Shown one piece after another: positions 8,787-54,495 of a stretch of 64,000 nucleotides of DNA (positions are counted from its first letter, which is position 1; each line of letters starts with the position of its first letter). The notes under the pieces are model-generated. The model was not told the origin of the DNA. It did not search any database and saw only the letters and a program-made list of their open reading frames with translations. The stretch spans positions 996 to 64,995 of the forward strand of contig JAQUHK010000002.1 in NCBI GenBank assembly GCA_028683655.1, in the 5' to 3' direction. Origin of the DNA: Alphaproteobacteria bacterium. GTDB taxonomy: Bacteria > Pseudomonadota > Alphaproteobacteria > UBA9219. The position numbers and the translations under genes were made by a program.

Positions 8787-8803
8787 AAAGAGGGGAGGTC
8801 AAA

Positions 8804-13619: not shown

Positions 13620-13992
13620 TCATTCTCATTTCGGAGACTGACCATGTCGAAGTGTGCGTTCGTTGCGCCACCATCCGGGCTTGTGCCTGTTGATTACCGG
13701 AAGAACATCCAAAATCAGATTTTGGCGTGCGATCCCGCCATTGTATTGGCATGCAAAGACTATGTTGTATTTTATTCCGGCCCGTCCATTGCGGTTATTA
13801 ATGAACTCGGTTACATATCGTACAATAATAACGACAGATCAGCGATACTGGCCCACGCCCTTAGCCCTTGGTTCAAATATGGAAGAGCCTCTTTAAAGCG
13901 TTGTTCAAGAGGAAGTCCAGCAAACTCGCGGGCATTCGGGCGAAGGTCCAAGATCAAGCCCTCCGTATCCTCAACGCTTCCGTCTGCCCATG

Positions 13993-14517: not shown

Positions 14518-15158
14518 TCAACAATCTCCGCTTCTTTCCATGCCGCATCAAAAGCAAATCTATACGCTGCCGCAAATGGACCTGCTTTGTGAAGGACAAC
14601 ATAGGGGGGGGTCTGGTGATCGAAAGAAATAAGTGCCAGATTATCGCCATAGGCATAGAAAGAGACGTCAGGCATTCCAATAATTTTTTTCTGTCGTCGT
14701 AAATCAGCCCACGTTCGTTTGAAGTTACCATCGGCTGCCAAAATCCGACCTCGTATCTTGCCTGTCTTTGCAAGATCAAGCATTTTCTTGCGATAAGCTT
14801 CTATGTTCTTAACAGCTTTTTGAAACGCACACTCGTTTGTAATGGATGCAAAAACATCCCCACCAAATTGTTCGAGGTAAGCTTCAACCTGTATTAAGAA
14901 ATCATTAAACCTATCTCGCCCTTCAAAAATCTCAACACCGATCGGTGCGCGACGAACGCCTTCATTTTCGATAAACTCAACACCAGCGTTACGAAAAGCC
15001 ACTGCTATTTTTTCAATCGTTTCTCTCTTCGGCGAGCTTTCTTCATTTTCAATATAGTGGATCGCTGCTGTGCTTAATCCACTATGCTTCGCGAGATCAC
15101 TACGATCCCAACCTAAAAGGACACGCGCTGCCCGAATTTGCTTGCCTGAAACGTGCAT
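14514..15158 (-). CDS. XRE-family HTH transcriptional regulator with C-terminal unknown domain (paralog family member)
   Basis: N-term QIRAARVLLGWDRSDLAKHSGLSTAAIHYIENE shares its pattern with 15983, 17444, 29168 and 53523. Confidence 0.65.
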   Translation of the reverse strand: MHVSGKQIRAARVLLGWDRSDLAKHSGLSTAAIHYIENEESSPKRETIEKIAVAFRNAGVEFIENEGVRRAPIGVEIFEGRDRFNDFLIQVEAYLEQFGGDVFASITNECAFQKAVKNIEAYRKKMLDLAKTGKIRGRILAADGNFKRTWADLRRQKKIIGMPDVSFYAYGDNLALISFDHQTPPYVVLHKAGPFAAAYRFAFDAAWKEAEIVE

Positions 15159-20569: not shown

Positions 20570-21859
20570 ATGCAGGCCAAAGATTTTTCGGATAGCTGCG
20601 CTCGTATTCGAGACGCCTTTATCCAGTCATTTCAAGATGCTCAGTTTGTCAATTTCGGCGTTAAGCCTCTAGTTCCGGAAGCTGATCAAAGCGTCATTTT
20701 TGTCGGTGCCTCTATTTCTGCTTTCAAACCATTCTTAACCAACCAATTGGTCTTTAACCAGAAATTCGATAACATGGTGCTTGTGCAACCATGTTTGCGT
20801 TTACACAATCTCAATAACCTTCTGAAGACACCTGTTCTTCAATACTACAGTTATTTCAATATGCTTGGCGCACTATGTCAACCATCTGCCGAAAAGCTAA
20901 CGATTGATGCCCTTGTCCGTTTCGTGGGTCAAATAATGACGAAAGGCATCATTAGAGCAAGCCGTCAGGAAACACCTTATTACTCAATATTCAATAATGC
21001 ATTCTCTATTGAACTTGACACACGTCCACCAGAATATTACAGCTGGATTTTTGGCACCAAAGAGTACATTGGGAAAGGCGTGACTCTTGCTCTTTCTAAC
21101 CACAACAAGAACTTCTGGCAGTTTAGCGTCAAAGATATTAGCAAGCCAGGTGCTGCTGCCTTGCCAGAAAACTTTGGAACAGGATTTCAGGATGTAGGCA
21201 ACCTTATCCGCCTATATGACCATAGTGGTCGACATATTGCGTCCGAAATTGGGCTTGGAATTGAAACAATTCATCAAGCTCAAAGTAATTGTGCGAGCCA
21301 GGTTGAAAGCTATGCGTACAAATCCATTCTTGAAAAGGTGTGTTCTAACGCCAGCGACCATTTTGTCGACTCAGCTGTTACATCGACAATCATCGTACAA
21401 GCAGGCGTGCGCGACGAAAATTCAAAAAGGGGTCAGCTTCTGAACAAAGCTGTGCGTAATACCGTATACACGGGATTAATAGAAGGGATGAATTTGGATC
21501 AAATAACGCGATCCACAGACACCTTGAATCAATTTTTAGGTGGCTCCCCATCAAACGCTGAAGACGTGCGCAAAATTGTAGAAAAGCAGTACTATGCTGC
21601 GATAAAGAATATTACAAATCTTGGCAGAGTTTTATCATCACCGCCCTCATCTGGGCGCGATGAGCATAGCCGAAAAAAGCTTGTAAAAAAAGTAATGAAC
21701 CTTGCTGATGGTGAATACTATATTCCGGATGTTGTGAGGGATCATCTTTTAAGCCAAAAAGGTCTGGTTGATCCTAGTCAGAATGGAGCTACTCCCTATC
21801 GCCCGCTTGACAGGCTGTTCCAGTTCATTCAGTCCAATCCTGCGCCAATTATGTGCTAA
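20570..21859 (+). CDS. Divergent alanyl-tRNA-synthetase catalytic-domain-like protein (paralog of 23076..24380)
   Basis: PLVPEADQSVIFVGASISAFKPFL and VQPCLRLHNLNN...YFNMLGA parallel AlaRS SLVPxNDPTLLFTNAGMxxFK and QxCxRxxxxHNDxxNVG...TFFEMLGN. The GDTGPCGPC block is absent. Confidence 0.45.
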   Translation: MQAKDFSDSCARIRDAFIQSFQDAQFVNFGVKPLVPEADQSVIFVGASISAFKPFLTNQLVFNQKFDNMVLVQPCLRLHNLNNLLKTPVLQYYSYFNMLGALCQPSAEKLTIDALVRFVGQIMTKGIIRASRQETPYYSIFNNAFSIELDTRPPEYYSWIFGTKEYIGKGVTLALSNHNKNFWQFSVKDISKPGAAALPENFGTGFQDVGNLIRLYDHSGRHIASEIGLGIETIHQAQSNCASQVESYAYKSILEKVCSNASDHFVDSAVTSTIIVQAGVRDENSKRGQLLNKAVRNTVYTGLIEGMNLDQITRSTDTLNQFLGGSPSNAEDVRKIVEKQYYAAIKNITNLGRVLSSPPSSGRDEHSRKKLVKKVMNLADGEYYIPDVVRDHLLSQKGLVDPSQNGATPYRPLDRLFQFIQSNPAPIMC

Positions 21860-21874
21860 AACGGGAGATATAAG

Positions 21875-22942
21875 ATGTCAGTGCTATTGAAAAATTTGGT
21901 TCGTCCGCGATGCCTTCAAGCCGGTGACTTAGTTGCTGCTGTAAGCTTATCTTGGGGTGGAGCTGCGATTTTTCCTCACCGGTATGAAACGGGCAAAAGT
22001 CAGTTTGAGCAGGCTTATGGCATCCGCGTGGTTGAGATGAAACATACGCTTAAATCTCCTGCGTGGATTGCTCAAAATCCGGCAGCAAGAGCCGATGACT
22101 TAATGGAGGCCTTCACAAATCCCGAAATATCAGGAATCGTGTCTGTCATTGGTGGCGATGATTCAGTGCTTATTTTGCCCTATTTGGATATAGGGGTAAT
22201 CGAGAAGAATCCGAAGCTATTTGTCGGTTATTCGGATACAACGGTAACTCATTTTGCTTGTTTAAAAGCTGGTGTGACAAGTTTTTACGGCCCCAGCATT
22301 ATGGCAGGATTTGCTGAAAATGCGGGTTTGCATAGTTATATGCGTCATTCTATCGAGAAAACCATGTTTTCACCTGAACCCGTCGGAACCATTATGCCAG
22401 CACAGGGCTGGACTACCGAACATCTTGACTGGGCCAGTCCTGAAAATCAAAAGCAGGCGCGAAAGATGAATCCTAATACAGGCTGGGTGTGCTTGCAAGG
22501 CACAGGCCGCACACAAGGTCGCTTGATTGGCGGGTGTGTAAGTACAATGCAGATGATTGAGGATACAAACATATGGCCAGAGCTTGATGTTTGGCGCGAC
22601 GGAATTCTTTTCTGCGAAGTCTCTGAGGAACTATCGTCAGCAGATGACTTCAAATTATGGCTACGCCATATGGGAGAAAAAGGCATATTGCAGGTTCTTA
22701 ACGGCATTCTCTTTGGGCGTCCCAGTGGACAAACGCCAAAAGCCGATTGGCATTTGTTTGACGAGGCATTTCTTTCGGTGATCCGTGATGAGCTTTCCCT
22801 GACAAGCCTTGCCATACTCTCACATCTGGATTTTGGCCATACGGACCCTATGTTTGTATTACCCTACGGTGTCATGGCCGAAATTGACTGTGACAAAACC
22901 TCGCTTGCTATACTTGAAAAAGCTGTGTTACCAAGGAGTTAG
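21875..22942 (+). CDS. Peptidase S66 family (LD-carboxypeptidase LdcA / microcin C immunity MccF-like)
   Basis: KLFVGYSDTTVTHFACLKAG contains the S66 GYSD catalytic-serine motif. Confidence 0.65.
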   Translation: MSVLLKNLVRPRCLQAGDLVAAVSLSWGGAAIFPHRYETGKSQFEQAYGIRVVEMKHTLKSPAWIAQNPAARADDLMEAFTNPEISGIVSVIGGDDSVLILPYLDIGVIEKNPKLFVGYSDTTVTHFACLKAGVTSFYGPSIMAGFAENAGLHSYMRHSIEKTMFSPEPVGTIMPAQGWTTEHLDWASPENQKQARKMNPNTGWVCLQGTGRTQGRLIGGCVSTMQMIEDTNIWPELDVWRDGILFCEVSEELSSADDFKLWLRHMGEKGILQVLNGILFGRPSGQTPKADWHLFDEAFLSVIRDELSLTSLAILSHLDFGHTDPMFVLPYGVMAEIDCDKTSLAILEKAVLPRS

Positions 22943-23075
22943 GAATGCAAAGGTGTGTTGGCGGAACAAGCAACAAGGTGTAAACTCTGGCGCAGGTTGA
23001 GATGTTTGGCGTGCTTTAGCGTGAGCCGAATAAATAGAAAAAAAGATACCAACTTAACAATGAAAAGGGGGAATT

Positions 23076-24380
23076 ATGACAACCACCACACAAATTATTC
23101 GTGAGCAATTTTTAGAGTTCTTTCAATCACGTGATCACATGATCATCCCTGGAGCCAGCCTAGTTCCCTCGAACGATCCAACTTTATTGCTGATAAATTC
23201 TGGCATGGCTCCTATCAAACCCTATTTTACAGCGGAAGCTGTGCCCATTAGCCCCCGCCTGTGCAATGTTCAAAAATGCATCCGCACTAATGACATTGAG
23301 GATGTCGGCGATCGTTCACATTTAACATTCTTTGAGATGCTTGGCAGCTGGTCGATTGGAGATTATTTTAAAGATGTCGCGGTAGAGCTTGCCGGAGATC
23401 TGCTGATGGGGAAGTTAAATATTCCTCAAAGTAAACTATATGCTACTGTCTATAAAGGAAACGACACAATTGGGCTAGCTTACGATGAAGAAAGCCATCG
23501 CGCATGGGAACGGTTGGGTTTCAAAAGCAATCAAATTGTTCCTCTTGGTGATGAAGATAATTTATGGGGGCCCGCTGGTGACACAGGGCCATGTGGACCA
23601 TGCACCGAGGTGTTCATTGATCTTGGCGACAAAACAGGTATTGGCAGCTATGAAGAAACTGGCATCTTTAACACACGCCGCTACATTGAGATTTGGAATG
23701 CTGGTGTCTTTATGCAGCTTAACAAAAATGCTGATGGCTCGTATGCCCCACTTCCATTTACCAGCGTGGACACAGGCGCAGGCCTAGAGCGTCTAACTAT
23801 GGCCATTAATGGCAATGAAAATGTGTATCAGGAGGAGCCGTACACATTACTTCTGACACAAATGCCTTCGGTTTTCTCGCAACATGAATGTCGTGTCGTT
23901 GCAGATCATGTGCGCGCCGCTTCACACCTTATTAGTGATGGTGTGTCGCCTGGGCGTAATGGCAGGGAATATATTACGCGACGCCTTATCCGTCGAATGG
24001 AAACAATCGCCGCATGTCATCGAACAAAGATTCCATATCCAGAACTGTTAAATGTCGTGCAGGCTAAAGACGGCAGAAATCACGAGGAATTTAAAAAAAG
24101 CGACGCCTTAATTAGAGAAGTTGTTGCGGCGGAAGTTGCCGTGTTTTCCCGCACACTGTCTTCAGGTCTTAAGGCATTCGATAAAGTTACCCGTAAGTTG
24201 AATGGATCAGCTGAATTGCCAAGCCAACATGCTTTCAACATCGTTACGGCTCATGGCTTTCCCTTAGAGGCCCTTGAACAAATTGCGACGACGCGTGGGC
24301 TGCGTATTGATCGACCAGGGGTGGAGCTTCTTATGGATCGACACAAAGCACTGTCACGCGGCGCGCCAAAACCAAAGTAA
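23076..24380 (+). CDS. Alanyl-tRNA synthetase N-terminal fragment-like protein (aminoacylation plus tRNA-recognition domains only; no editing or C-Ala domains), 434 aa
   Basis: Near-collinear match to the AlaRS N-terminus: LVPSNDPTLLLINSGMAPIKPYF, CIRTNDIEDVG, HLTFFEMLGSWSIGDYFK, GDTGPCGPCTEVF, RYIEIWNAGVFMQ, SVDTGAGLERL, RVVADHVRAASHLISDGV. Ends where the editing domain would begin. Confidence 0.8.
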   Translation: MTTTTQIIREQFLEFFQSRDHMIIPGASLVPSNDPTLLLINSGMAPIKPYFTAEAVPISPRLCNVQKCIRTNDIEDVGDRSHLTFFEMLGSWSIGDYFKDVAVELAGDLLMGKLNIPQSKLYATVYKGNDTIGLAYDEESHRAWERLGFKSNQIVPLGDEDNLWGPAGDTGPCGPCTEVFIDLGDKTGIGSYEETGIFNTRRYIEIWNAGVFMQLNKNADGSYAPLPFTSVDTGAGLERLTMAINGNENVYQEEPYTLLLTQMPSVFSQHECRVVADHVRAASHLISDGVSPGRNGREYITRRLIRRMETIAACHRTKIPYPELLNVVQAKDGRNHEEFKKSDALIREVVAAEVAVFSRTLSSGLKAFDKVTRKLNGSAELPSQHAFNIVTAHGFPLEALEQIATTRGLRIDRPGVELLMDRHKALSRGAPKPK

Positions 24381-24396
24381 TAGGCCTTTCCTCAAA

Positions 24397-24423
24397 AGAT
24401 ATAGCCTCGTCGAGGCTATATCT
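24397..24423. terminator. Perfect palindrome / hairpin after the mini-AlaRS gene
   Basis: AGATATAGCCTCG / CGAGGCTATATCT inverted repeat. No clear T-run, so it may be a terminator or a protein-binding site. Confidence 0.3.
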
Positions 24424-24525
24424 TGAAAGGAGACGTGCTGGACAACACACCTTTCTCATTATCTGTTGCGCACGTCGGATCGAGTAATTAGGAAAGGTTG
24501 ATAGATGCTTCTAATTAGAAATCAA

Positions 24526-24942
24526 ATGAAGGCATTTAAGAACACACTGCTTCTTGTTCTAGTTGCACAGGCAATCGTCGGATGTCGCGGACAAGAAAAA
24601 AACGACAAGCGAAGCGATTTTATGAAGCAGTGCATTTCATTCAGAACGAATGACAAAATTCATTCAGTCGTGTTTAAGCAAGGGCAAGTCGTTATAACAA
24701 GAAGCTTTCTTGCACCGACTAGATTTGAAAGTTTTTACGTTTGTTTAAATGAACCACGCTGTGAGGATAAATTGGAATCTTGGCATTTGGGACCAGACAC
24801 GACGGGTCGTTTTGTGCGGCTTGTGAGTCCGAGCTCATTACCTACTCCTACGATGGTAAAGCGTGTGGACAAAACCGAGCCATTGCTGGCCAGAGGGAAC
24901 GCATTTCACGCCACGATTAAAGAGTGCGTAGCTTATGAATAG
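24526..24942 (+). CDS. Putative lipoprotein (about 138 aa)
   Basis: MKAFKNTLLLVLVAQAIVGC is a lipobox-like signal peptide (IVGC). Confidence 0.4.
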   Translation: MKAFKNTLLLVLVAQAIVGCRGQEKNDKRSDFMKQCISFRTNDKIHSVVFKQGQVVITRSFLAPTRFESFYVCLNEPRCEDKLESWHLGPDTTGRFVRLVSPSSLPTPTMVKRVDKTEPLLARGNAFHATIKECVAYE

Positions 24943-24964
24943 GCCACAAAAACAAAGGAACACG

Positions 24965-26065
24965 ATGAAAAAGATTCAACGTAACAAATATCTAGCCTAT
25001 GCGAGCAACTTGAAGCGGGAAGAAATTAAACAGATTGCAACCTATGTGCTGTGGCTTCCCGATCAAATCATCGACTGCCATGCACACTGCAATCTGGACA
25101 TACATGTTAAATCTTTGTCCCCAACTGTCTACAATCATATGATGTCAACCTTTCCAAGTTTTAATTTGGATGAATCTGAATCTTGGACAAAAGTCTTGCT
25201 GCCCGGCAAGGACGTTCAGCACCTCCGTTTTCCACATGCTTTTCCTGGCATTGATCACAGGGCTGCAAACACGTATCTCTTGGAAAACTCGCCCGACAAG
25301 GACTTGGTCGCGATCTATGGAATCCCCAATGATATTCCCTACACAATTGAAACGCTTAATCATCCTCGCGCTTCGGCTCTCAAAATGTACTATTTATATT
25401 TAGATCCTCCAGCGAAAGATGTATATCAATTTTTTCCAACACAGGTTTTGAAAGAGGCTGAGCGTTTAAAAAAGCCGATCATTTTGCATCTTCCGAGCCC
25501 GCTCCCTCAATGCGTTGATCAAGTCGAACGTTTAGCACAAGATTTTCCTGAGCTGAAGATTTGCCTCGCGCATTTGGGTGTTTGCGAAACAGTTACCTCT
25601 GAATTGGAATCGGCCTTTCGGAAGATCAGGCCCTATCCCAATATCAATATGGACACGGCACTTGTGCCCTCTTCTAAAGTTGTAAGTTTGGCCTACGATG
25701 TTTTGGGTTTGAAAAGGATCATGTATGGTTCGGATGCCCCCTTAAATCTCATCCGTTCAGTTTGGTATCAAAATCCAGAATTAGGAACCAGATTGGCAAC
25801 CGAATTCCCCTATCATTGGGCAAACCCATCAGAATACGTTAAATATAAACACCTAGCGCTGAATTCCATTCATGCTCAATGGACGGCCTTGGGGGCGATC
25901 CATTCCTTTTTTGATGGGAAGTGGGGTCCAGAACGCATTCAAGCTAAATTAGCCATTTTCCACAGCAACGCCAAAATATTTTTTGGTTTTCCTGATTATG
26001 AACCCACACGGCCTTGTAATACTATACCCAACCTGCAGAACAGCAACGAACAAACATTGAAATAA
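24965..26065 (+). CDS. Amidohydrolase-2 / TIM-barrel metal-dependent hydrolase family protein
   Basis: IIDCHAHC metal-binding start, internal HLPSP and LAHLG, late GSDAP motif. RBS aaggaac before the ATG at 24965. Confidence 0.5.
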   Translation: MKKIQRNKYLAYASNLKREEIKQIATYVLWLPDQIIDCHAHCNLDIHVKSLSPTVYNHMMSTFPSFNLDESESWTKVLLPGKDVQHLRFPHAFPGIDHRAANTYLLENSPDKDLVAIYGIPNDIPYTIETLNHPRASALKMYYLYLDPPAKDVYQFFPTQVLKEAERLKKPIILHLPSPLPQCVDQVERLAQDFPELKICLAHLGVCETVTSELESAFRKIRPYPNINMDTALVPSSKVVSLAYDVLGLKRIMYGSDAPLNLIRSVWYQNPELGTRLATEFPYHWANPSEYVKYKHLALNSIHAQWTALGAIHSFFDGKWGPERIQAKLAIFHSNAKIFFGFPDYEPTRPCNTIPNLQNSNEQTLK

Positions 26066-26082
26066 TCTTACAGGAGAACGAT

Positions 26083-27105
26083 ATGACAACCGTTAATTTA
26101 AGTATTCGTGATTTTGGTGACCATGCCTGTTTATTTATTCCTGTGCAGCGAGGCGTTCGTGTTCTGTGGGAACTGACCAAACGCTGCAATCTTGCATGCA
26201 AACATTGCTTCGTTCCTCCATATTCTAAGGAACGCGGTGATCTTTCTACGGCTCAATGCATCTCAATCATGGACAGTTTTCCTCAAGCTGAAGTCACACG
26301 CATTATATTCAGCGGCGGCGAACCTTTGACGAGGCGAGACATTCCAGAATTGATCCAAGCATCAAATGCGCGAGGCATTCAGGCCGCATTGTGCACAAAT
26401 GCGACACTTGTTACTGACTCTATTGCAAGAGATTTATATCGATCTGGACTTCGCGAAGCTTTCGTCAGCTTAGATGGTGCAACAGCTGAAGTTCATGACG
26501 GACAGAGGGGCCTTTCCGGCAGCTTTGACAGGACTATCAAAGGGATCAAAACGCTTAAGTATAATGGTCTGACCGTTGATATCTCCTGTATTCCGACAAA
26601 GCTAAACATCCATGACTTGCAAGAACTTCCCCGACTATGCAGTTCGCTTGGCTGTTCATCAATAACTTTCGGGGGATGGTTTCCTAAGCAAAACATGCGC
26701 GGCACTGGCGGTGATCTGACGCCTGACGCTCAATCAATGACTAAGTTCCTTCACTCATTCCGAGAGGTCGGTGAGAAAGCCAACATGCCTATGCACACGA
26801 GCAGGCTTGTTCCTCACGCGCCGCTTGAAGCTTGTCCCGCTGGCGTATCTATCATTGGGATAGATGCCAGTGGCCACTACCACCCATGTCTCAATATTCC
26901 TACAACGCATTCCGAAATTACCGATGCGCTGAAGGCATCAATCACAGAAATCCTGAAGAGATTTAAAAAGATACCCGAACTGCCTACGTGCGCAAAAAAT
27001 TGCCCTAGCGGCGAAGAATGCTTTGGCGGCTGCCCAGCGGATAAAATCAATGGGGTAGATAGGGTATGCTCACAAAAAGGATTAGTTTCTTTACAAATTA
27101 GGTAG
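26083..27105 (+). CDS. Radical SAM enzyme with C-terminal SPASM-like Cys-rich domain
   Basis: CNLACKHC (CxxxCxxC) with downstream FSGGEPL. C-terminal CPAGVS...HYHPC...CAKNCPSGEECFGGC cysteine cluster. Confidence 0.8.
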   Translation: MTTVNLSIRDFGDHACLFIPVQRGVRVLWELTKRCNLACKHCFVPPYSKERGDLSTAQCISIMDSFPQAEVTRIIFSGGEPLTRRDIPELIQASNARGIQAALCTNATLVTDSIARDLYRSGLREAFVSLDGATAEVHDGQRGLSGSFDRTIKGIKTLKYNGLTVDISCIPTKLNIHDLQELPRLCSSLGCSSITFGGWFPKQNMRGTGGDLTPDAQSMTKFLHSFREVGEKANMPMHTSRLVPHAPLEACPAGVSIIGIDASGHYHPCLNIPTTHSEITDALKASITEILKRFKKIPELPTCAKNCPSGEECFGGCPADKINGVDRVCSQKGLVSLQIR

Positions 27106-27405: not shown

Positions 27406-27861
27406 TTAGATTTGGCCAGAATTTGCCTTAATAAGTCCAAGAAGAGCCGTAACACTGCTAAGCATCAATTTGGCGTCGCCTTCGGTGATTTCGTCAAGGA
27501 CGCTCCAATCATGCGCTTCGCGCAGACCTGCGACGGTGTCGATGACATGCTCAATATTTTGGCACTCATCGGGGGTTGAGCCGATATTGCGGGTGCTTTT
27601 CACAAACCTCTCGAAGACTTTGATAGAAGTGATGGCGGCAGCATTGTCATTATTGGCCGTATGCTGAGGGAGCTGTTTTTCTGTTGCCCGTTCTGCCTCA
27701 CAGCCGAGACTCGCCATATAGCCCGCGGCAATGCTGTCCGAAGCCCGATAAGCCAATCGTTCTGCTTCGCCATATTGTGCGGCTGTAAGCAACTCTCGCG
27801 CTTGCCGTAGCTGTTCCGTTGCTTGATCGAATAGGGTTTGGCTGTGCGCTGTCATCATCAT
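27406..27861 (-). CDS. Conserved island-backbone hypothetical protein (151 aa), helical
   Basis: Paralog at 51800..52201 (MMMTAHSQTLFDQATEQLR vs MMMNSHSQTLFDQATEQLR). Shared REAHDWS motif. Confidence 0.5.
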   Translation of the reverse strand: MMMTAHSQTLFDQATEQLRQARELLTAAQYGEAERLAYRASDSIAAGYMASLGCEAERATEKQLPQHTANNDNAAAITSIKVFERFVKSTRNIGSTPDECQNIEHVIDTVAGLREAHDWSVLDEITEGDAKLMLSSVTALLGLIKANSGQI

Positions 27862-29090
27862 GCCGCCAGTGAAAAAATCGGGTCATGTCTTGCCGCATCG
27901 GGACTGATAAGTTTAAGGGGCCGTGACGGCGCATTATGTTTTTGCGCCGCCTTGCGCAAGTCAAGGCTTGCCGTTTGCATCGGACGATTACCTAGCACAC
28001 GCTCTTTTCCGCCGATGGCTTTGATTGCGGCGGCAATCTCCGGCTCCTCCAAAACATGGATGTGCATCGGCGGTGTCATGACAGGTTCTCGACGTTTAGG
28101 GGCTAACAGAATGATGTTCTGGGCATCGAACAGGGCCGCAAAAACCTCTCGCACACTCCCGTCACAGGGGATTTGAGGACTTGGCGCGCTTTGGACAAGG
28201 CCGCCCCAGCTACGCTCGCCAATCTCTTGATCCGCTGCTTTGAGTATAGACGACACCACACATTCCAAAACACCTGCATTCGGCAGGCTGCCGTTGCTGA
28301 TAAACTGGCATTGCGTTACAGGCGTTCCCTTAAAGGTAGAAAGACCCTTGGTAAAGCTAGCCATCACCTTTTGCTTCGCATTCGGGCTTTCCCAACTCAC
28401 AACAAAGTTATTGGGATCAATCGTTCCGTCAGCCATCCGCACAAACTGGACATCCACGGGTACTTTGAATCTATCTTCAAGCCCATGCACGCTCTCAATC
28501 TTGAAAAGTGCACTCTCTTCATCCTTACCGAGATGCGCTCCCAACTTTTCTTGGATCGTGACAATACTTCTATTGTCCGGCGCAAACTCGAATATCTCAC
28601 CGACAGGTACACTGCCATCCTTGAACCCATGCGTTGCGTAGTAATCAATGCTGGCTTGAATAAGAGAGTGGCCGAGCCCGCCCTCTGGACGCCTCTTTGC
28701 ATATGGCTTCTCAAGAATTATCTTCTTCATCTCGGAAGGCAGAATGCATACATCCTCGCTATAAATCCCGCGATGAACATCGATGTCATTTCCGTTTCTT
28801 TGCAAAAAGAGTGAACGGAAATTGATCGTCGCACCAACAATCTTTGGATCGCAAGTATCCCATGCAGTGGCAAAGAATAACACTTCAACGTCGCCTGCAG
28901 ACATGACTTTCATGGCGCGTCGGAAACCAACAGCGTCAAATGTCGCTCCATGGATTTTGGCTTCATGTTGAATCGAGTCGCGCAGAATGCCGCTCAACGC
29001 ACAATTGTGGAGGATGTCTTTCTCGTTCTGGGGCAACACGGCGACGTTGAGTCCGCCCATGAGCTGTTGAAAGTTTTTTGTTTCAATCAT
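27858..29090 (-). CDS. Conserved island-backbone hypothetical protein (410 aa)
   Basis: About 75% identical paralog at 52198..53445. No recognisable catalytic motif. Confidence 0.55.
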   Translation of the reverse strand: MIETKNFQQLMGGLNVAVLPQNEKDILHNCALSGILRDSIQHEAKIHGATFDAVGFRRAMKVMSAGDVEVLFFATAWDTCDPKIVGATINFRSLFLQRNGNDIDVHRGIYSEDVCILPSEMKKIILEKPYAKRRPEGGLGHSLIQASIDYYATHGFKDGSVPVGEIFEFAPDNRSIVTIQEKLGAHLGKDEESALFKIESVHGLEDRFKVPVDVQFVRMADGTIDPNNFVVSWESPNAKQKVMASFTKGLSTFKGTPVTQCQFISNGSLPNAGVLECVVSSILKAADQEIGERSWGGLVQSAPSPQIPCDGSVREVFAALFDAQNIILLAPKRREPVMTPPMHIHVLEEPEIAAAIKAIGGKERVLGNRPMQTASLDLRKAAQKHNAPSRPLKLISPDAARHDPIFSLAA

Positions 29091-29167
29091 TGTGCGACAC
29101 CCAAAATTTGAGGAGCCAAAACTAATCCGAGTTTATCACAAAATCCTGCACATTCACTGGGGGCTTA

Positions 29168-29821
29168 TTACTTTCGTTTCTTTTTGGGCAGGCCGGAGCT
29201 TTTTGCCCAGAAAGCATCGAACTCACGAAGGTAACGCTGGGCGACCTGCTTGGAATAGATGGTTACGCATTCGCGTTTGGAGGCGTTATCTGTCAGCGGG
29301 ATAACGACATAGTCCCCATAAAGGTACCACGGGGCCACATCCTTAAACTCGTCATCAAGGAGCTTATAGCTGCAATAGCTGAGCGGTGCCCCCAGCTCAC
29401 CTTCTTGCACAAGAACCTTGGCATCCAGCCCTTCGATGGCTTCCATGCGTGCAATATGTTCGGCGGCATAATCGTCGGCAATCGGCATATAACGCGCATC
29501 CCCGAAATTGAACTGGCGAATACGACCACCTTTGCGCACAGTTTCGTAAATATGGTCGAGAAGCTGGCGATACCCAGTTTTTCCGCTGTAGGTACGCATC
29601 TGGTGCTTGCGGACACAAACGCCTTCATTCTCGGTAAACTCGATCCCTTCCTGATCCAAAACAGTCAGGATACGCGCTAGCGTTCTTTCTTGGGGCTGCA
29701 CGGTTTCATTTTCAATCTGGCGGATCGTCAGGCGCGTCAGCTCGCACTGATCGGCCAATTCTTCCATCGACCAACCGAGAAGCCCACGTGCGCCCCGTAT
29801 CTGTCTGCCTGTAATGCTCAT
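29168..29821 (-). CDS. XRE-family HTH regulator with C-terminal unknown domain (217 aa)
   Basis: MSITGRQIRGARGLLGWSMEELADQCELTRLTIRQIENE. Near-identical copy at 53523..54176. Confidence 0.7.
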   Translation of the reverse strand: MSITGRQIRGARGLLGWSMEELADQCELTRLTIRQIENETVQPQERTLARILTVLDQEGIEFTENEGVCVRKHQMRTYSGKTGYRQLLDHIYETVRKGGRIRQFNFGDARYMPIADDYAAEHIARMEAIEGLDAKVLVQEGELGAPLSYCSYKLLDDEFKDVAPWYLYGDYVVIPLTDNASKRECVTIYSKQVAQRYLREFDAFWAKSSGLPKKKRK

Positions 29822-30138
29822 AACGCTTCATCCTTCTAAAATAATCATTATGGTTGTTTATACCATATGAATATGAAGAAAGCGAGAACATTCTTATGGT
29901 GTAACGTTCGAAATCTGCAAAAAATGTTTGGTCTGGTCAACAGGAATACGGCTGAACTGCCTCATAAACGTTGTTTATCAATACATTAGCCGCTAAATCC
30001 ATTCTGAAAGCAATTTGCAATCATTTTGTATATTCGTATTGACATCGTAACAGAAAGGTGCTATGGTGCCTCTCAGATTGATAAGAAACTTTAGTAGCCA
30101 TAGCCCAAACCGATTTTTAGCACCAAAGGATGAAGACC

Positions 30139-30660
30139 ATGAAAAAATCCCTTAAGAGAACGACCCAGAAGGTCAGAGCGGAGCAGGCTCCATGCCCCGA
30201 ACGCTTCCAGCACAGCGGTGGGCTGCGCCGCGATCTTGTCAAAAGCAATGGCAAGAAGAAGCTAGATACGTTGCGTTACCGTGCCCGCTGGTCGAGCCCG
30301 CTCGACCGCTATTGTGAGAAGAAGCTGATCGGCTATGCCCAATATGAGGCGGGCATCCGGTTCTGGAAGGCCTATCACCACGCCGTGTCGGGCGGAGCCG
30401 CCTGTTCGGTGCGTGCCAGCCGCATCGATAGCCCTGCGCGGCTTGGTCTGCCGGATCGTTTGCGCCGCGCCCTAGCTTATGTCGAACAAGCCTATGCCGT
30501 CCTCACCGCCGATGTGCTTGGTGTTGTGATCGACGTATGCGCCTATGACCAGCCAGCAGCCAGCCCGCAGGAGCTAGGCCTGTTGCGCAAAGGCCTTGGC
30601 CGCTTGGCACAAGAATGGGGGATGGCGGCAACGGAGCTGTGCCAGCCAAGACGCAGCTAG
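30139..30660 (+). CDS. Conserved backbone hypothetical protein (about 173 aa)
   Basis: Paralog at 54496..55017. aaagga RBS before the ATG. Confidence 0.5.
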   Translation: MKKSLKRTTQKVRAEQAPCPERFQHSGGLRRDLVKSNGKKKLDTLRYRARWSSPLDRYCEKKLIGYAQYEAGIRFWKAYHHAVSGGAACSVRASRIDSPARLGLPDRLRRALAYVEQAYAVLTADVLGVVIDVCAYDQPAASPQELGLLRKGLGRLAQEWGMAATELCQPRRS

Positions 30661-30711
30661 CCCCAACCAGTTTTATACTCGGTCAGTCATTTTAAGAGAG
30701 AACATTAACGA

Positions 30712-30744
30712 CCCCCAGTCCGGCCAGACTGGGGGTTTCTTTTT
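30712..30744 (+). terminator. Rho-independent terminator (GC hairpin plus T-run)
   Basis: CCCCCAGTC-CGGCCA-GACTGGGGG followed by TTTCTTTTT. Identical element at 55070..55102. Confidence 0.6.
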
Positions 30745-30765
30745 GCCTAGATCAGATCGTGAAAA

Positions 30766-30789
30766 GGTTGGCGGCTACGCCTGCCAACC
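30766..30789. promoter_or_regulatory. Inverted repeat GGTTGGC-N10-GCCAACC upstream of mobC; candidate oriT / MobC-relaxase binding site
   Basis: Seen in sequence; conserved at 55124..55147 before the second mobC. Confidence 0.3.
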
Positions 30790-30832
30790 GTTCGCGTGAA
30801 TCTGATCGATAACCAAAGAAAGGAGGCCCCTT

Positions 30833-31417: not shown

Positions 31418-32157
31418 TTATTAAATCAACCATACGCGGCGGCTATCTTTCGGCGGCCCAATATATGAAGGATATTGGCGAGAACGAGAAAACGCGCATT
31501 GTTGAACTGAGTGATCCAAAGGCCAAAGACCTTGACGATGCCTGTTATAAGATGTGGGTGATCGCTTGCCCAACCAAGGTTAAAAAGCCGCTTCACCACA
31601 TCAGCATCAACCCGATGAAGGGCGAGCATCTGACCGACAAGCAGGTTCTGGCCATCGCGGACAGGTGCGAAGAGGTTTATGGCTATAAAATGTTTCATCA
31701 CCAGCGTGTGATTGTCGAACACGTCAAGGACGGGCGGCAGCACTTTCACGTTATCTGGAACCGCGTGAGCCTTGTCACGGGCACGACAGTATGGCCGGGG
31801 CATCACTGGAAAAAGTCCAAGCAAGTCGCTCGCGAGATGGAAGTCAGGCTTGGCCTTAAACGACCACAGCCAAGGAGTACGGGAGCCAAGGGAAGCAAAA
31901 CGAGAACAGCAAAACCGCGTTCGACAGGCTTGCGATTATCGAATCCGGACAGGAAGTCACCTCAAACAAAAAGCAAGTCCACGCCGCCGCCAGCTCGCTA
32001 TAGACCGGAGAGAAAGAAGGCCGCGCCACCACCGCCTATGCAGCCCACGCACCCCAAGAAAAAACGCTGGCCAGAGCAAGCCATCATCGACTGGGAAGTC
32101 TGGGGTCATTTATGGCCGAGGCGCTTCTTCGCGCTCTGGCCGGAACTGACGATTTAA
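31414..32157 (+). CDS. MobA/MobL-type relaxase (relaxase/mobilisation nuclease domain)
   Basis: N-term MIIKSTIRGGYLSAAQYM (catalytic Tyr region); HHISINP; HFHVIWNRV histidine triad. ATGA overlap with mobC. Confidence 0.75.
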   Translation: MIIKSTIRGGYLSAAQYMKDIGENEKTRIVELSDPKAKDLDDACYKMWVIACPTKVKKPLHHISINPMKGEHLTDKQVLAIADRCEEVYGYKMFHHQRVIVEHVKDGRQHFHVIWNRVSLVTGTTVWPGHHWKKSKQVAREMEVRLGLKRPQPRSTGAKGSKTRTAKPRSTGLRLSNPDRKSPQTKSKSTPPPARYRPERKKAAPPPPMQPTHPKKKRWPEQAIIDWEVWGHLWPRRFFALWPELTI

Positions 32158-32594
32158 GGAGCTTCGTTGCGTTCGCCCAAATCCTGATAAAAACGCAGCA
32201 TATAGCCGTCCGGATCAAGAACGATAAATTGTCGGTTGCCGACATAAACATCATCGGCCCGATACCATTTTTCTTCAATGGGAAGGAAGACTGTAGCTCC
32301 GGCTTTTTGTACGCGAGCATAAAGACCGTCAACGTCATCCGTTTCGATTTGCAGGTTCATACCACGACCAAATGGAGGCTCCAGCGACGCGGCAGTCCAG
32401 CTCCTGTCGCTGCTGGGGACAAGTTCGTCGAGCATGATCCGTGCGCCTTGGCGTTCGAGCATGGCGAAGCCTTCTTCTTCTCGCTGATACTGAACCTTGA
32501 AACCCAGCACATCGAGATAGAAAGACAAGCTTCCCTTAATGTCGCGGCACATGAGTTCCGGTGTCAGGACTGTATACAAAAAATCATTACTCAT
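32154..32594 (-). CDS. VOC / glyoxalase-bleomycin-resistance family protein
   Basis: MSNDFLYTVLTPELMCRDIKGSLSFYLDVLGFKV is a typical VOC N-terminus. Island A only; a remnant is at 56433..56684. Confidence 0.6.
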   Translation of the reverse strand: MSNDFLYTVLTPELMCRDIKGSLSFYLDVLGFKVQYQREEEGFAMLERQGARIMLDELVPSSDRSWTAASLEPPFGRGMNLQIETDDVDGLYARVQKAGATVFLPIEEKWYRADDVYVGNRQFIVLDPDGYMLRFYQDLGERNEAP

Positions 32595-32863
32595 CACAAA
32601 CCTCATACAGAGAAAGGGGATCATGCCACCGAACCGCATTAAAACAAAATCATTTTACCTATCGAAACACAAACGCCGCGTTTATCGCGTCATGGAGGAA
32701 AACACAGCCACAGTATTCTTTTTATCAAAAACCCAAGCCGCCCTTTATGTCCTCGGACGGCAACTCATGAAGATGATGGACAAACAGCAATAAACCTCAA
32801 ACCCGCTCCGTAAGGAGCTTCTTTTAACCCACCCGCCGGAACGCCTTCCGAGCGGGATTTTTT

Positions 32864-35428: not shown

Positions 35429-35902
35429 TTACAGGTTATTAAATATGGGGTATCCACATCTAAGACAGTTTTCCAAGCCCAGTGCGCTGTTGTAATGGAC
35501 GCCACCGCCCCATCCACACTGTGGGCAAAATTCATCTATCTCAGTATCAAGCCACTCCCATGGACCTATATATTCTGGAACAGCATCGTTATCGCAGCCA
35601 AGAAACTCTCCTACATTTGCTTGAACGCAGATAAAAGATGACGTGCTTTCAGTCTTCAACTCATCCAGTACGTTCCATGGCTCAATGGAAAACCATTCGC
35701 CATTAAGCCTGTATTTTTCATACTTTTTGTGAAGTTGCTTTTCATGCGACTGGTCAGCAGTTTCAACCCAACCCATTATTGCAAGTTTTCTAGAATTTCC
35801 TGTCTGGAGTTGTATAATTCTGTCATTTGGAGCACGACTAAACCCAATCTTGATTCTAGAATTATCACTGTCCTCATTTTCGATAATAAAATATGTACAC
35901 AT
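35429..35902 (-). CDS. T5orf172 (GIY-YIG-like) domain protein with C-terminal zinc ribbon
   Basis: RIKIGFSRAPNDRIIQLQTGNSRKLAIMGW...HEKQLHKKYEKYRLNGEWFSI; CPQCGW...CLRCGYP. Confidence 0.55.
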   Translation of the reverse strand: MCTYFIIENEDSDNSRIKIGFSRAPNDRIIQLQTGNSRKLAIMGWVETADQSHEKQLHKKYEKYRLNGEWFSIEPWNVLDELKTESTSSFICVQANVGEFLGCDNDAVPEYIGPWEWLDTEIDEFCPQCGWGGGVHYNSALGLENCLRCGYPIFNNL

Positions 35903-35952
35903 ATAAAGCCCAATCTTGCTATAGCCATAAAAGGTTACTTACAAAAAAAACA

Positions 35953-36198
35953 TTAAGACTCTGGCCCTTCCTCATCAGAGAAAAAGTCAGCGACTTCAGT
36001 ATTTATATGCTCAACCATTGAGATAATGCTCTCCTTCTCTGTATCAGTAAATTTACCCTCCAACTCAGGCTCATCTAGCCTTCTTGTATTGATCAGATCT
36101 TTGATCATGTCGGTATAACTAAATGCTGTCTTTTCACCAGCAACCAGTTTATGAACCGATATTTCTAACTCTTCATTTTTGCTAAATACCAATTTCAT
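35953..36198 (-). CDS. Small acidic hypothetical protein (81 aa)
   Basis: ORF overlaps the downstream gene start by 4 nt (operon-like). Confidence 0.35.
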   Translation of the reverse strand: MKLVFSKNEELEISVHKLVAGEKTAFSYTDMIKDLINTRRLDEPELEGKFTDTEKESIISMVEHINTEVADFFSDEEGPES

Positions 36199-38851: not shown

Positions 38852-38916
38852 CTAACCCCTTGAAAAGCGTGGTGGGTGCGACAGGGATTGAACCTGTGAC
38901 CCCTACCGTGTGAAGG
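38852..38916. repeat. Direct repeat copy 2 of tRNA-Val 3' half (junction between islands A and B)
   Basis: 65-nt match to 59031..59095. Confidence 0.8.
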
Positions 38917-41377: not shown

Positions 41378-41397
41378 TACGCCTCCTTTGCTTTCTC

Positions 41398-44466: not shown

Positions 44467-44485
44467 GTTTGACTATCCAGTGGGT

Positions 44486-47463: not shown

Positions 47464-47467
47464 TGGT

Positions 47468-51799: not shown

Positions 51800-52201
51800 T
51801 TAGTCCATCAATGGAAACAAACACCTAGCATACTTCAGCACCTCGCCCACACGTTGCAGTGTCAATTCAGCATCGGCCTTGGATATGTCGTTAGGGAGGC
51901 TCCAGTCGTGGGCTTCACGCAGGACTTTGACGTCTCCTACGATGCCCCAAGCTTCCTTCATTGCATCGGACGTTGTTCTGGCATTCCAGATATGGGTTGC
52001 GAACTTCTCAAAGATTTCATCTGACGGGGTGGCAGGCTCATTGTCGAGCTGGGTCATGTAACTGGCCGCTATGGTATCCGATGCTTGCAAAGCCAGCTTT
52101 TCACTTTCGGCATATTGACCTGTTTCAAGCGCGGATTGTGCCAGCCGGAGCTGTTCCGTTGCTTGATCGAATAGGGTTTGGCTGTGTGAGTTCATCATCA
52201 T
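51800..52201 (-). CDS. Conserved backbone hypothetical protein (133 aa), paralog of 27406..27861
   Basis: See the paralog. Confidence 0.5.
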   Translation of the reverse strand: MMMNSHSQTLFDQATEQLRLAQSALETGQYAESEKLALQASDTIAASYMTQLDNEPATPSDEIFEKFATHIWNARTTSDAMKEAWGIVGDVKVLREAHDWSLPNDISKADAELTLQRVGEVLKYARCLFPLMD

Positions 52202-53445
52202 GCCGTTAATGAGAAAATCGGGTTGTATCTGGCCGCGTCGGGCGCAATGAGCGTCAAGGGACGGTTGGGCGCATCATGCCGCTCGGCAGCTTTGCGAAGA
52301 TCAAGGGATGCCGTTTGCATAGGCCTGCCGCCTAGCTCGCGCTGTTCTGCCCCCAAGGATTTAAGCGCGGCAACAATCTCTGGTTCCTGTAAAACATGAA
52401 TATGTATTGGTGGTGGCACAATGCCCAGCAAAGGGCTGGATCGCCTTGGCGACAACAAAACGATGTTCTGCGCCTTGAACAAAGCCGCATAAACATCCTG
52501 TAAACTCCCGCCGAGAGGAACAGCAGGGCTGGCCTCTTGCCGAGGCTTAGCGAGACTCCCCCAACCACGCTCACCGATCTCTTGCTCTGCCGCTTTCAGG
52601 ATGGAGGCTGCAACACATCGCAACACACCCGAATTGGGCATTTGGCCATTGCTCATAAACTGGCATTGCGTCACAGGCGTTCCCTTGAAGGTCGAAATGC
52701 CTTTGGTAAAGCTGGCCACCACTTTTTGCCGAGAGTCCGGACTTTCCCAACTCACGACAAAGTTATTGGGATCAATCGTGCCATCTGCACGCAGAACATA
52801 GCGAACCTCTACGGGTAGCTTGAATAGACCAGCAGGAAGGCGGCCACTGGCAATTTTCAGCAACGCACTGTCTTCACCGCGCCCAAGGGTCGCACCCAGA
52901 CTTTCCTGAACAGCGATAATCTTGCTGTTATAGGGAGCAAACTCGAAAGCTTGTCCCACAGGGATGATGCCATCCTTGAATCCATGCGTTGCGTAATAAT
53001 CTATGCTGGCTTGAATAAAGGGCAAGCCCAATCCGTTTCTTGGAAGAGACTTGGTTCGTGGCCTTTCAAGAATGATCTCGCGCATCTTTGCGGGAAGCAA
53101 AGCCACATCCTCGCTGTAGATGCCGTGATGAACATCTATGTCATTCCCGTTTCTTTGCAAGAAGAGTGACCGAAAGTTTATAGCCGCGCCAACAATTTTC
53201 GGATCACAAACATCCCACGCGGCAGCGAAGAACAAAACTTCCACATCATCGGTGGACATAGCCCTCATAACTTGGCGAAAGCCTACGGGATCGAATGCCG
53301 CGCCATGCACCTTGGCTTCGTACTGGATGGCATCGCGCAGCATACCGCCAAGCGTGCTGCAATGAATGACATCCGAGTCAATTTGCGGGAGAATGGCGAC
53401 GTTAAGGCCGCCCATGAGCTGCTGAAAGTTTTTTGTATCAATCAT
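52198..53445 (-). CDS. Conserved backbone hypothetical protein (about 415 aa), paralog of 27858..29090
   Basis: MIDTKNFQQLMGGLNVAILPQ start, same as the paralog. Confidence 0.55.
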   Translation of the reverse strand: MIDTKNFQQLMGGLNVAILPQIDSDVIHCSTLGGMLRDAIQYEAKVHGAAFDPVGFRQVMRAMSTDDVEVLFFAAAWDVCDPKIVGAAINFRSLFLQRNGNDIDVHHGIYSEDVALLPAKMREIILERPRTKSLPRNGLGLPFIQASIDYYATHGFKDGIIPVGQAFEFAPYNSKIIAVQESLGATLGRGEDSALLKIASGRLPAGLFKLPVEVRYVLRADGTIDPNNFVVSWESPDSRQKVVASFTKGISTFKGTPVTQCQFMSNGQMPNSGVLRCVAASILKAAEQEIGERGWGSLAKPRQEASPAVPLGGSLQDVYAALFKAQNIVLLSPRRSSPLLGIVPPPIHIHVLQEPEIVAALKSLGAEQRELGGRPMQTASLDLRKAAERHDAPNRPLTLIAPDAARYNPIFSLTA

Positions 53446-53522
53446 TGTTGCGACACCCATAATTTGAGGAGCCAAACTAATCCGAGCGTATCACAAAATC
53501 CTCTACCTGTACTGGGGGCTTA

Positions 53523-54176
53523 TTACTTTCGTTTCTTTTTGGGCAGGCCGGAGCTTTTTGCCCAGAAAGCATCAAATTCTCGCATATATCGCTGGGCGAC
53601 CTGCTTGGAATAGATGGTTAAGCATTCGCGTTTGGAAGCGTTATCTGTCAGCGGGATCACGACATAGTCCCCATACAGATACCACGGGGTCACGTCTTTG
53701 AACTCGTCGTCGAGGAGCTTATAGCTGCAATAGCTTACCGGAGCCCCCAACTCACCTTCCTGCACAAGAACCTTGGCATCCAGTCCTTCGATGGCAGCCA
53801 TGCGCTTGATATGCTCGGCGGCGTAATCGTCGGCAATTGGCATATAACGCGCATCCCCGAAATTGAACTGGCGGATGCGCCCGCCTTTGCGAACGGTTTC
53901 ATAGATATGGTCGAGAAGCTGGCGATAGCCTGTTTTGCCGCTATAGGTACGCATCTGGTGCTTGCGGACGCAAACGCCTTCATTCTCGGTAAACTCGATC
54001 CCTTCCTGATCCAGAACGGTCAGGATACGCGCCAGTGTTCTTTCTTGCGGCTGCACGGTTTCGTTTTCAATCTGGCGGATCGTCAGGCGCGTAATCTCGC
54101 ATTGATCGGCCAGTTCTTCCATTGACCAACCGAGAAGCCCGCGTGCGCCCCGTATCTGTCTGCCTGTAATGCTCAT
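53523..54176 (-). CDS. XRE-family HTH regulator (217 aa), near-identical to 29168..29821
   Basis: Paralog. Confidence 0.7.
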   Translation of the reverse strand: MSITGRQIRGARGLLGWSMEELADQCEITRLTIRQIENETVQPQERTLARILTVLDQEGIEFTENEGVCVRKHQMRTYSGKTGYRQLLDHIYETVRKGGRIRQFNFGDARYMPIADDYAAEHIKRMAAIEGLDAKVLVQEGELGAPVSYCSYKLLDDEFKDVTPWYLYGDYVVIPLTDNASKRECLTIYSKQVAQRYMREFDAFWAKSSGLPKKKRK

Positions 54177-54495
54177 AACGCTTCATCCTTCTAAAATAAT
54201 CATTATGGTTGTTTATAACATATGAATATGAAGAAAGCGAGAACATTTTTAGGGCGTAACGGTTGTGATCTGTAAAAAAATGTTTGGTTATCGCGGCACA
54301 AAACAGTCATATTTTCTCTATAACCATTATATATCAACATATTAATAGTGATAATCCGATATGAAAGCCTTTTGCAATCATTTTGTATATTCGTATTGAC
54401 ATGGCAACAAAATCGTGCTAGCGTGCCATCAGATCATTAAGAAACTTTATACGCGCACAGTAAAAACCGATTTTTATAACCAAAGGATGAAGACC

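Follow-up and report, generated by a model that had tools for sequence, protein, structure and literature searches.

What does an operon made up of one regulator and two proteins of no evident kind do for the mobile island that carries it? The question is raised by a stretch of 64,000 nucleotides from Alphaproteobacteria bacterium (GenBank assembly GCA_028683655.1, contig JAQUHK010000002.1, positions 996 to 64,995), here called the window, in which an earlier examination of the letters alone (the sequence-only reading) had noticed two minus-strand operons of three genes each. Mobilizable islands that ferry defence systems are abundant whilst their control is poorly understood, and the operon is best read as controlling mobilizable islands of a rare, tRNA-integrated family from uncultivated Alphaproteobacteria, in which a predicted acyltransferase is obligately linked to an XRE-type regulator. 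The two operons were confirmed, with open reading frames as first described. In copy A, the XRE regulator gene (29821..29168, minus strand, 217 aa, identical in sequence to NCBI MDD2324491.1) is followed on the same strand by the gene for a large protein (29090..27858, 410 aa) and that for a small one (27861..27406, 151 aa). Copy B, also on the minus strand, has a 217-aa regulator (54176..53523, NCBI MDD2324511.1), a large protein (53442..52198) of 414 aa from its ATG, or of 425 aa from an alternative upstream TTG start at 53475, and a 133-aa small protein (52201..51800) that is without the disordered insert of its counterpart. In both copies the two downstream genes share the four nucleotides ATGA, in which the small gene starts and the large one stops, and are translationally coupled. 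The regulators are 97% identical, in keeping with their description as near-identical; the value of about 75% once given for the two downstream proteins was too high for both, since the large proteins share 67–68% and the small ones 43–45% of their residues.

Predicted folds of the operon proteins

For the large protein, neither the two window copies nor 67 members of the family gave an acetyltransferase match in Pfam or NCBIfam, and no usable match of any kind was found in Pfam, NCBIfam, PADLOC, PHROGs or the sequences of the PDB (phmmer/hmmsearch); E. coli genomes, PLSDB plasmids and INPHARED phages likewise yielded no relative. The statement that this protein has no recognisable motif is thus correct for sequence profiles, but fails for structure, in which a two-lobed GNAT fold can be seen. 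The family is a rare one: a word-indexed search of 5.8 billion proteins returned 44 clusters and an exhaustive profile search of 1.84 billion cluster representatives returned 129 representatives, and its members, approximately 370–450 aa long and named ‘hypothetical’, come from metagenome-assembled genomes of Alphaproteobacteria. An AlphaFold2 model built on a 44-sequence alignment, the check that had been proposed for the 410-aa protein, was confident (predicted local distance difference test score (pLDDT) 85, predicted template modelling score 0.83). In its first lobe (residues ~15–200) the strands (E) and helices (H) assigned by DSSP follow the order β1-α1-α2-β2-β3-β4-α3-β5-α4-β6 (E15–20, H26–47, H53–64, E68–76, E83–99, E102–116, H138–154, E164–169, H174–182 and E194–198), which is the GNAT topology with its β4/β5 splay. 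The second lobe (~213–377) is GNAT-like but N-terminally truncated, lacking β1-α1-α2, and carries a variable insert at residues 295–340. When the model was compared with the PDB using Foldseek, 94 matches were obtained at E ≤ 1e-3, and all of those listed are GNAT-fold enzymes; N-myristoyltransferase (NMT), Eis2 and the tandem-GNAT protein MAB_4324 are at the top, and single GNATs are present too. A library of viral structures (BFVD) independently returned GNAT and NMT. Global template modelling (TM) scores against two-lobed GNATs are only ~0.3, at 7–10% sequence identity, because the lobes pack differently, and the claim made here is therefore one of membership of the GNAT fold and not of a particular family.

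Conservation of the putative active site was assessed in 67 sequences, down to 18% identity. The motif A loop P135-E-G-G138-L-G140 lies directly before α3 and has Pro in place of the Q/R of the pattern Q/R-x-x-G-x-G/A; position 138 is Gly in 78% and Ser in 10% of sequences, and position 140 is Gly in 82% and Ala in 13%. The acidic residues E112 (95%), D113 (98%) and E168 (100%) are nearly or wholly invariant, position 173 is Asn in 78% and Ser in 16%, and lobe 2 has a loop of its own, Q262-x-x-S-N-G267. On this model the 410-aa protein is a two-lobed GNAT-fold acyltransferase-like enzyme, and it is likely to be an active acyl-CoA transferase because the cofactor loop and the acidic residues are conserved. 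The string ‘HEAKIH’ was considered as a metalloprotease motif and rejected, its spacing being HExxxH and its first His not conserved. What had been an unknown 410-aa protein thus becomes a testable enzyme, with a fold, candidate catalytic residues (E112, D113, E168 and G138/G140) and a defined control region.

The structural match to Eis-type two-lobed GNATs, which are aminoglycoside acetyltransferases, brings up the idea, which we consider unlikely, that the large protein acylates an antibiotic, a metabolite or a signal as a piece of useful cargo, the C-terminal domain of the regulator sensing substrate or product. That domain, of ~155 aa, could indeed bind a ligand, and resistance was the function preferred by Makarova et al. 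for the Xre-GNAT pairs that they described (PMC2701414). The fixed position of the operon in a control region, its co-inheritance with the backbone and its independence of cargo are however unlike the behaviour of ordinary cargo, and the shuffling of alleles, together with HEPN, zeta and ParDE neighbours, suggests functions in conflict.

The regulator of copy A carries a helix-turn-helix (HTH) at residues 5–59, which matches Pfam HTH_3 at 1e-7, and beyond it a family-specific C-terminal domain of ~155 aa for which no relative was found in Pfam or the PDB. Its tail is rich in Lys and Arg (PKKKRK in copy A, PKKxRK as the family pattern), a feature shared by 18 of 18 orthologues that are paired with a two-lobed GNAT and by one of four paralogues. 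It is the product of the most conserved gene of the element family, with 55–98% identity to copy A across loci in both of its domains; E. coli genomes, PLSDB plasmids and INPHARED phages gave HTH-level matches only. Paralogues of the 217-aa regulator are also found in the cargo adjoining the operon in two related loci, L006 (11240–12500, minus strand; 13351–14927, plus strand) and L005 (11677–13030, minus strand). One of those in L006 overlaps by 8 nt the gene for a canonical 204-aa GNAT (Acetyltransf_1, 26.2 bits against a cut-off of 20.7), so regulators of this type have been paired with GNAT-fold enzymes more than once.

The third protein had been thought to have a weak resemblance to HEPN proteins, and this impression proved well founded. 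Profile searches of Pfam, NCBIfam, PADLOC, PHROGs and the PDB were unproductive for the small protein, as they were for the C-terminal domain of the regulator. The two window proteins alone have no significant Pfam match, whereas 41 of the 67 aligned homologues (from 74 gathered by profile search) individually match the HEPN family PF05168, at best with 4.5e-6, and others match Csm6-HEPN (three) or AbiV-HEPN (one); HEPN membership by sequence is consequently transitive for the window copies. An AlphaFold2 model of the 151-aa protein (pLDDT 82) shows a bundle of five helices, interrupted at 52–71 by a disordered insert, and its top Foldseek matches are the HEPN domains 1ufb, 2hsb, 1wol, 3o10, 4nqf and 1o3u (TT1696, AF_0298, ST0689, the sacsin HEPN and TM0613 among them), at probability 1.0 and TM 0.5–0.7 but with E-values of 8e-3 to 0.2. 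Across the 67-member family, invariance is confined to A45, F86, L113, R114 and E115. The REAHDWS motif noted earlier is accordingly real for a subclade, but family-wide it shrinks to L113-R114-E115, His being replaced by Tyr in most of the 67 sequences. The conserved Arg corresponds to the Arg of the HEPN motif; the canonical Rx4-6H was not found in the small protein, which has His or Tyr at +3 and no His at +5 to +7. Sub-threshold matches to FliS and DUF4398 were dismissed, as they reflect the long N-terminal helices alone. The small protein is on this model a divergent, non-canonical HEPN-fold protein, and nuclease activity therefore cannot be assumed for it.

With folds of HTH, GNAT and HEPN type, a role in replication or partition of the excised island is extremely improbable. 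Nothing was found in its favour: the operon proteins show no NTPase, Rep, primase or ParA/B features, and searches of Pfam, NCBIfam and plasmid collections linked them to no protein of replication or partition, the kind of homology that the sequence-only reading had said would make the module ordinary.

Linkage to the control hub and exchange of the downstream genes

Linkage was surveyed in the window copies and approximately 16 distinct related loci, obtained by looking up contigs and by scanning genomes and metagenomes (DNA-pattern scans of metagenomes and genomes gave 6 and 8 loci, respectively, many of them duplicates). At every locus with a readable flank, a 215–218-aa XRE orthologue lies upstream of the GNAT gene at a divergent control region. 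This holds for GNATs that are 25–30% identical to those of the window and for the most distant loci, L028 (E=4e-10) and L029; in L018, L025 and L028 the stop and start codons of the two genes overlap. On the other side of the control region, mobilizable islands have a gene of ~170 aa divergent from the regulator and then NikA and the relaxase, L029, an integrase island, has a 74-aa gene and the integrase, and L028, which is phage-like, has a DUF6456 protein followed by phage terminase, portal, protease and capsid genes. The DUF6456 domain has been discussed in connection with the gene-transfer-agent activator GafA (PMC9638019). In mobile elements of at least three kinds, all from uncultivated Alphaproteobacteria, the control hub is where this regulator–enzyme pair is found. 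Order and position are the same whatever the cargo and the recombinase, which is of the tyrosine type in L001 and L005 and of the serine type in L004, and the backbone role suggested earlier is upheld by this distribution: related elements lacking the pair were not seen among the loci with a readable flank.

The third gene is less constant. HEPN follows GNAT in 11 distinct loci and is absent, with GNAT intact, from L006, L012, L018, L026, L028 and L029. In L012 an epsilon-like 112-aa gene and a 508-aa Zeta toxin (PF06414, 3.5e-35) occupy 2223–4103, between XRE and GNAT, and in L026 ParD/ParE take the place of HEPN after GNAT. Because GNAT remains intact where HEPN is missing, XRE and GNAT together make up the invariant core at the element's control hub, and the third position accommodates genes of the addiction type. 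The proposed backbone of three genes is right in that their order and position recur in related elements, but must be reduced to two, the HEPN gene being facultative. For the same reason, the idea that GNAT does nothing more than neutralise a HEPN toxin by modifying it, as in type VII systems, was rejected. Two further observations concern these loci. The L012 insertion splits a pair that is otherwise invariant, and where ParD/ParE replace HEPN, a second GNAT fragment of the same family occurs ~1.5 kb downstream, which may represent the edge of another tandem element (ParD/ParE and fragment together: L026, 9490–10070 and 10943–11219; L027, 7932–8399).

The genes of the element differ widely in their divergence. 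Across loci, identity to copy A is 60–86% for the relaxase, 29–88% for the 176-aa gene that faces the operon, 25–68% for GNAT and 28–59% for HEPN. Between copies A and B, DNA identity steps from 87–96% to ~70% exactly at the XRE stop/GNAT start (~29100), and is lower still in the small gene (37–56%). Synonymous divergence (dS, Nei–Gojobori) between the two copies is 0.35–0.54 for XRE (~0.44), the 176-aa gene, NikA, the relaxase and ArdC, and rises to ~2.2 for GNAT and ~1.3 for HEPN, both of which are saturated; the same discordance is seen when either copy is compared with L006 and L009. The gene trees are also incongruent: copy B GNAT groups with L005 (proportion of non-synonymous differences, pN, 0.107, against 0.190 to copy A), and copy B XRE with copy A (pN 0.019, against 0.059 to L005). 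Since dS jumps at the XRE|GNAT junction and the trees disagree, the sequences indicate that a GNAT+HEPN cassette has been swapped by recombination at this junction among elements with near-identical regulators. That the two downstream proteins are simply evolving faster, as had been concluded from their lower identity, is thus the wrong inference, and is corrected here. Judged by ratios of non-synonymous to synonymous divergence (dN/dS) of 0.10 for GNAT and 0.34 for HEPN, both genes are still under purifying selection; the value for XRE is 0.04.

Tandem islands and their control region

Three exact copies of the tRNA-Val 3′ segment form attachment (att) repeats at 1114–1168, 38852–38916 and 59031–59095, the last within a tRNA-Val(cac) gene (59049–59123, minus strand), and the window is therefore two islands integrated in tandem at one tRNA-Val gene. 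Each holds one copy of the operon, as the sequence-only reading had it. The islands measure ~37.7 kb and ~20.2 kb and have different integrases (386 and 344 aa), and in each are found the operon, the divergent 176-aa gene, a NikA-like protein, a short MobP-type relaxase, ArdC and a tyrosine integrase. The relaxases, at 247–250 aa, are unusually short and consist of the nuclease domain alone. Cargo beside the operon is defence-related in both islands and lies on its far side, which agrees with the placing of the module at the boundary of cargo and backbone.

The divergent control region of copy A (29822..30129, 308 bp) shows conserved blocks in an alignment of nine loci, and that of copy B (54177..54486) was aligned with it and with the other loci. 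Upstream of XRE there is a predicted extended −10 element, TGGTATAAA (29865–29857, minus strand; family form TGnTATAAA), which in distant loci is so near the ATG that the predicted mRNA would be nearly leaderless, and an inverted repeat (29858–29872/29890–29904) overlaps it. A predicted promoter TTGACA-17-TATGGT (30039–30067, plus strand) points towards the 176-aa gene. We infer that the XRE regulator binds within 29822–30129. The motif CCATWATG is enriched, largely at homologous positions, and on that account was rejected as independent evidence of an operator.

The 176-aa gene (30130–30660 and 54487–55017, plus strand) thus has a promoter of its own and stands opposite XRE in all mobilizable-island loci; no family could be assigned to it. 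It is followed by an 11-bp hairpin (30710–30737) and T-tract, of which the structure and not the sequence is kept in L001, L003, L010 and L015. Recurring with compensatory changes and a T-tract, the hairpin is a terminator and was rejected as a repeat of an origin of transfer (oriT), and the 176-aa gene is therefore a separate transcription unit. The gene may be the activator half of a switch: its product is collinear with the DUF6456 (GafA-type) protein of L028 and shares an ER[F/W]QHSG motif with it, although the match is not significant (hhalign probability 1.2%). Directly upstream of nikA lie nested inverted repeats (30750–30812, plus strand), GATCAGATCG...ATCTGATCGA around GGTTGGC...GCCAACC, which are 96% conserved in copy B and make a better oriT candidate than the terminator hairpin.

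These arrangements also bear on the suggestion that GNAT and HEPN are expressed early after transfer and neutralise the defences of the recipient, their diversity being that of an arms race. The operon is transcribed away from the mobilization control region, its alleles diverge quickly and recombine, and ArdC is encoded on the same backbone. It is nevertheless a very unlikely account: neither an oriT nor a direction of transfer could be placed, looking for ATCCTG, the core of the MobP nick site, was uninformative, and the hairpin at 30710–30737 is a terminator; a regulator as first gene and a dN/dS of 0.10 do not suggest an arms race; and the pair is also present in a phage-like element and in an island with an integrase only.

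The remaining contents of the islands are as follows. Island A carries a type I restriction-modification operon (hsdM, hsdS and hsdR; 2367–12876, plus strand), interleaved with a GmrSD type IV restriction enzyme (4685–6787) and a Macro-domain protein (8774–9865), and further cargo at 20570–27105 (plus strand) that encodes two alanyl-tRNA-synthetase-like (tRNA-synt_2c) proteins, an amidohydrolase and a radical SAM enzyme; a comparable cluster (radical SAM, tRNA-synt_2c, DCD and NUDIX) recurs in the related island L005 (13953–18796). A ~460-bp segment (32150–32610, plus strand) between relaxase and ArdC is found in island A only, and the 176-aa open reading frame across it (32112–32642) has no Pfam match. 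Between integrase A and the middle att repeat (35429–38522, minus strand) lie a 157-aa T5orf172/MUG113 (GIY-YIG-like) gene and a 775-aa open reading frame without a Pfam match, an odd placement, as the integrase of an island normally abuts att. The cargo of island B (39098–51599, minus strand) comprises an HTH_17 protein, a 1090-aa SNF2 helicase, DUF4391, an N6/N4 methylase, a 349-aa unknown protein, a ResIII + RE_endonuc protein and an AAA_13 ATPase, and a system of this type also follows the operon in L001 (11672–19690).

Possible roles and comparison with known systems

Among the roles considered, we tentatively favour a repressor-led immunity operon in which the GNAT-fold enzyme, with HEPN where it is present, acts as a maintenance or exclusion effector, a reading given about one chance in three. 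The XRE regulator would repress or autoregulate the divergent promoters, and the acyltransferase, aided in some loci by HEPN, would be a conflict or maintenance effector with an addiction or exclusion function resembling those of toxin-antitoxin or abortive-infection systems. It would be expressed together with the regulator, which would also restrain it, as lambda rexAB is carried on the cI transcript, and the two co-resident islands would have different effector alleles under essentially one regulator. This reading is put first because of the toxin-antitoxin-like grammar of the operon, the company of zeta, ParDE and HEPN, the deep recombining alleles and the presence of two of them in tandem. 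It is supported by the GNAT fold with its conserved active site and by the HEPN fold; by XRE directly upstream of GNAT, at conserved promoters, in all readable loci; by addiction modules within the same operon (epsilon/zeta in L012, ParDE in L026); and by GNAT alleles of saturated dS and dN/dS of 0.10, two of which sit side by side. GNAT toxins and Xre-GNAT gene pairs also have a precedent (PMC2701414).

Several points weigh against such an effector. Conservation is far higher in the regulator than in the enzyme (55–98% against 25–68%), the reverse of the usual antitoxin/toxin pattern, and specific neutralisation is hard to square with GNAT alleles that are 62–68% identical to each other. Known GNAT toxins are single-domain proteins of ~170 aa that are paired with ribbon-helix-helix (RHH) partners. 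PADLOC and PHROGs find nothing for the operon, and HEPN is without Rx4-6H and missing from about a third of loci, in which GNAT is intact. The strict control-hub position in three kinds of mobile element would, moreover, suit a regulatory partner equally well.

A close rival of the effector reading, possible though doubtful, is a post-translational switch, in which GNAT, as an anti-repressor or co-regulator, would acylate the XRE master repressor, for instance on its Lys-rich tail, and so bring a quiescent element to mobilization; distinct cues from helper or host would be sensed by the divergent alleles of GNAT, and the logic would be that of ImmR/ImmA with acetylation in place of proteolysis. 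The linkage of XRE and then GNAT is exclusive, very old and always at the hub, be it of mobilizable islands, the integrase island or the phage-like element. The overlapping stop and start codons of the two genes speak for it too, as does the PKKxRK tail, found in 18/18 partnered regulators and missing in 3/4 paralogues. Eis, which ranks among the closest structural matches, has a DNA-binding protein rich in Lys as an acetylation substrate. A more specific form of the proposal is rather improbable: the two-lobed GNAT would be an undescribed acyl-transfer anti-repressor that acetylates the Lys-rich tail or HTH of XRE and switches the element on, and exchanged alleles, with the insert at 295–340, would tune each island to its own helper or infection cue. 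XRE-COG2856 pairs were once also listed as toxin-antitoxin-like (PMC2701414). Against a switch of either form, an enzyme devoted to a substrate that hardly varies should not diverge to 25% identity, nor should deep GNAT alleles be swapped against the same regulator, and the XRE paralogue that is paired with a canonical GNAT has no basic tail. The high conservation of regulator relative to enzyme is awkward for both the effector and the repressor-modification readings. If the enzyme is a toxin or exclusion effector, a two-lobed class is added to the GNAT toxins; if it modifies the repressor, there is a new way of switching a mobile element on, and if it is an anti-repressor, two islands with the same repressor become independently inducible.

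The operon can be set beside several known systems. As functional analogies, ImmR of ICEBs1 and cI of lambda are repressors encoded first in operons divergent from transfer or lytic genes, and share their transcripts with, respectively, the obligate partner ImmA and the exclusion genes RexAB. The layout described here is alike, XRE being the first gene of an operon divergent from the transfer or lytic side in all loci with a flank. Unlike ImmA, the large protein has no COG2856 Zn-metalloprotease fold and no HExxH, and its chemistry would be acyl transfer; the operon proteins have no homology to RexAB. The toxin-antitoxin systems of GNAT-RHH type (TacAT, AtaRT, KacAT and ItaRT) resemble the operon in that, on mobile DNA, a DNA-binding first gene is translationally coupled to that of a GNAT-fold enzyme whose cofactor features are intact. 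Their toxins are however single domains of ~160–180 aa that match Pfam GNAT, whereas the present enzymes measure 380–452 aa and have two lobes and no Pfam match, and the antitoxin is RHH/DUF1778, whereas here the upstream gene encodes a 217-aa XRE HTH_3 protein that is the slower-evolving partner. NMT, mycobacterial Eis and MAB_4324 share the tandem GNAT architecture of ~400 aa and are the best structural matches, but differ in lobe packing and have no family-level sequence signature in common with the large protein, which is also without the SCP2-like third domain of Eis. HEPN proteins of PF05168/UPF0332 (TT1696, AF_0298, ST0689 and TM0613) share the helical fold and the HEPN-motif Arg with the small protein, which has R-E-A-[Y/H] and no Rx4-6H; in HEPN-MNT modules the partner is a minimal nucleotidyltransferase, whereas here GNAT is upstream and no NTP_transf_2 match was found.

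The nearest precedent is the generic Xre-GNAT two-gene association noted in 2009 (Makarova, Wolf and Koonin; PMC2701414), likewise an XRE-HTH gene beside a GNAT-fold gene in a compact, mobile, toxin-antitoxin-like and uncharacterised pair. Literature searches returned nothing on the family of XRE with two-lobed GNAT, which is undescribed and unannotated. In contrast to the pairs of 2009, the enzyme here is of 380–450 aa, has two lobes and lies outside Pfam, the regulator has an extra 155-aa domain, and the pair is tied to a mobile-element control hub and often followed by a HEPN gene. All of the folds (XRE-HTH, GNAT and HEPN) are therefore known, as is the adjacency of Xre and GNAT in general; what is new is the combination of a two-lobed GNAT that is invisible to profiles with a dedicated regulator carrying a domain of its own, located at control hubs and optionally joined by a non-canonical HEPN protein.

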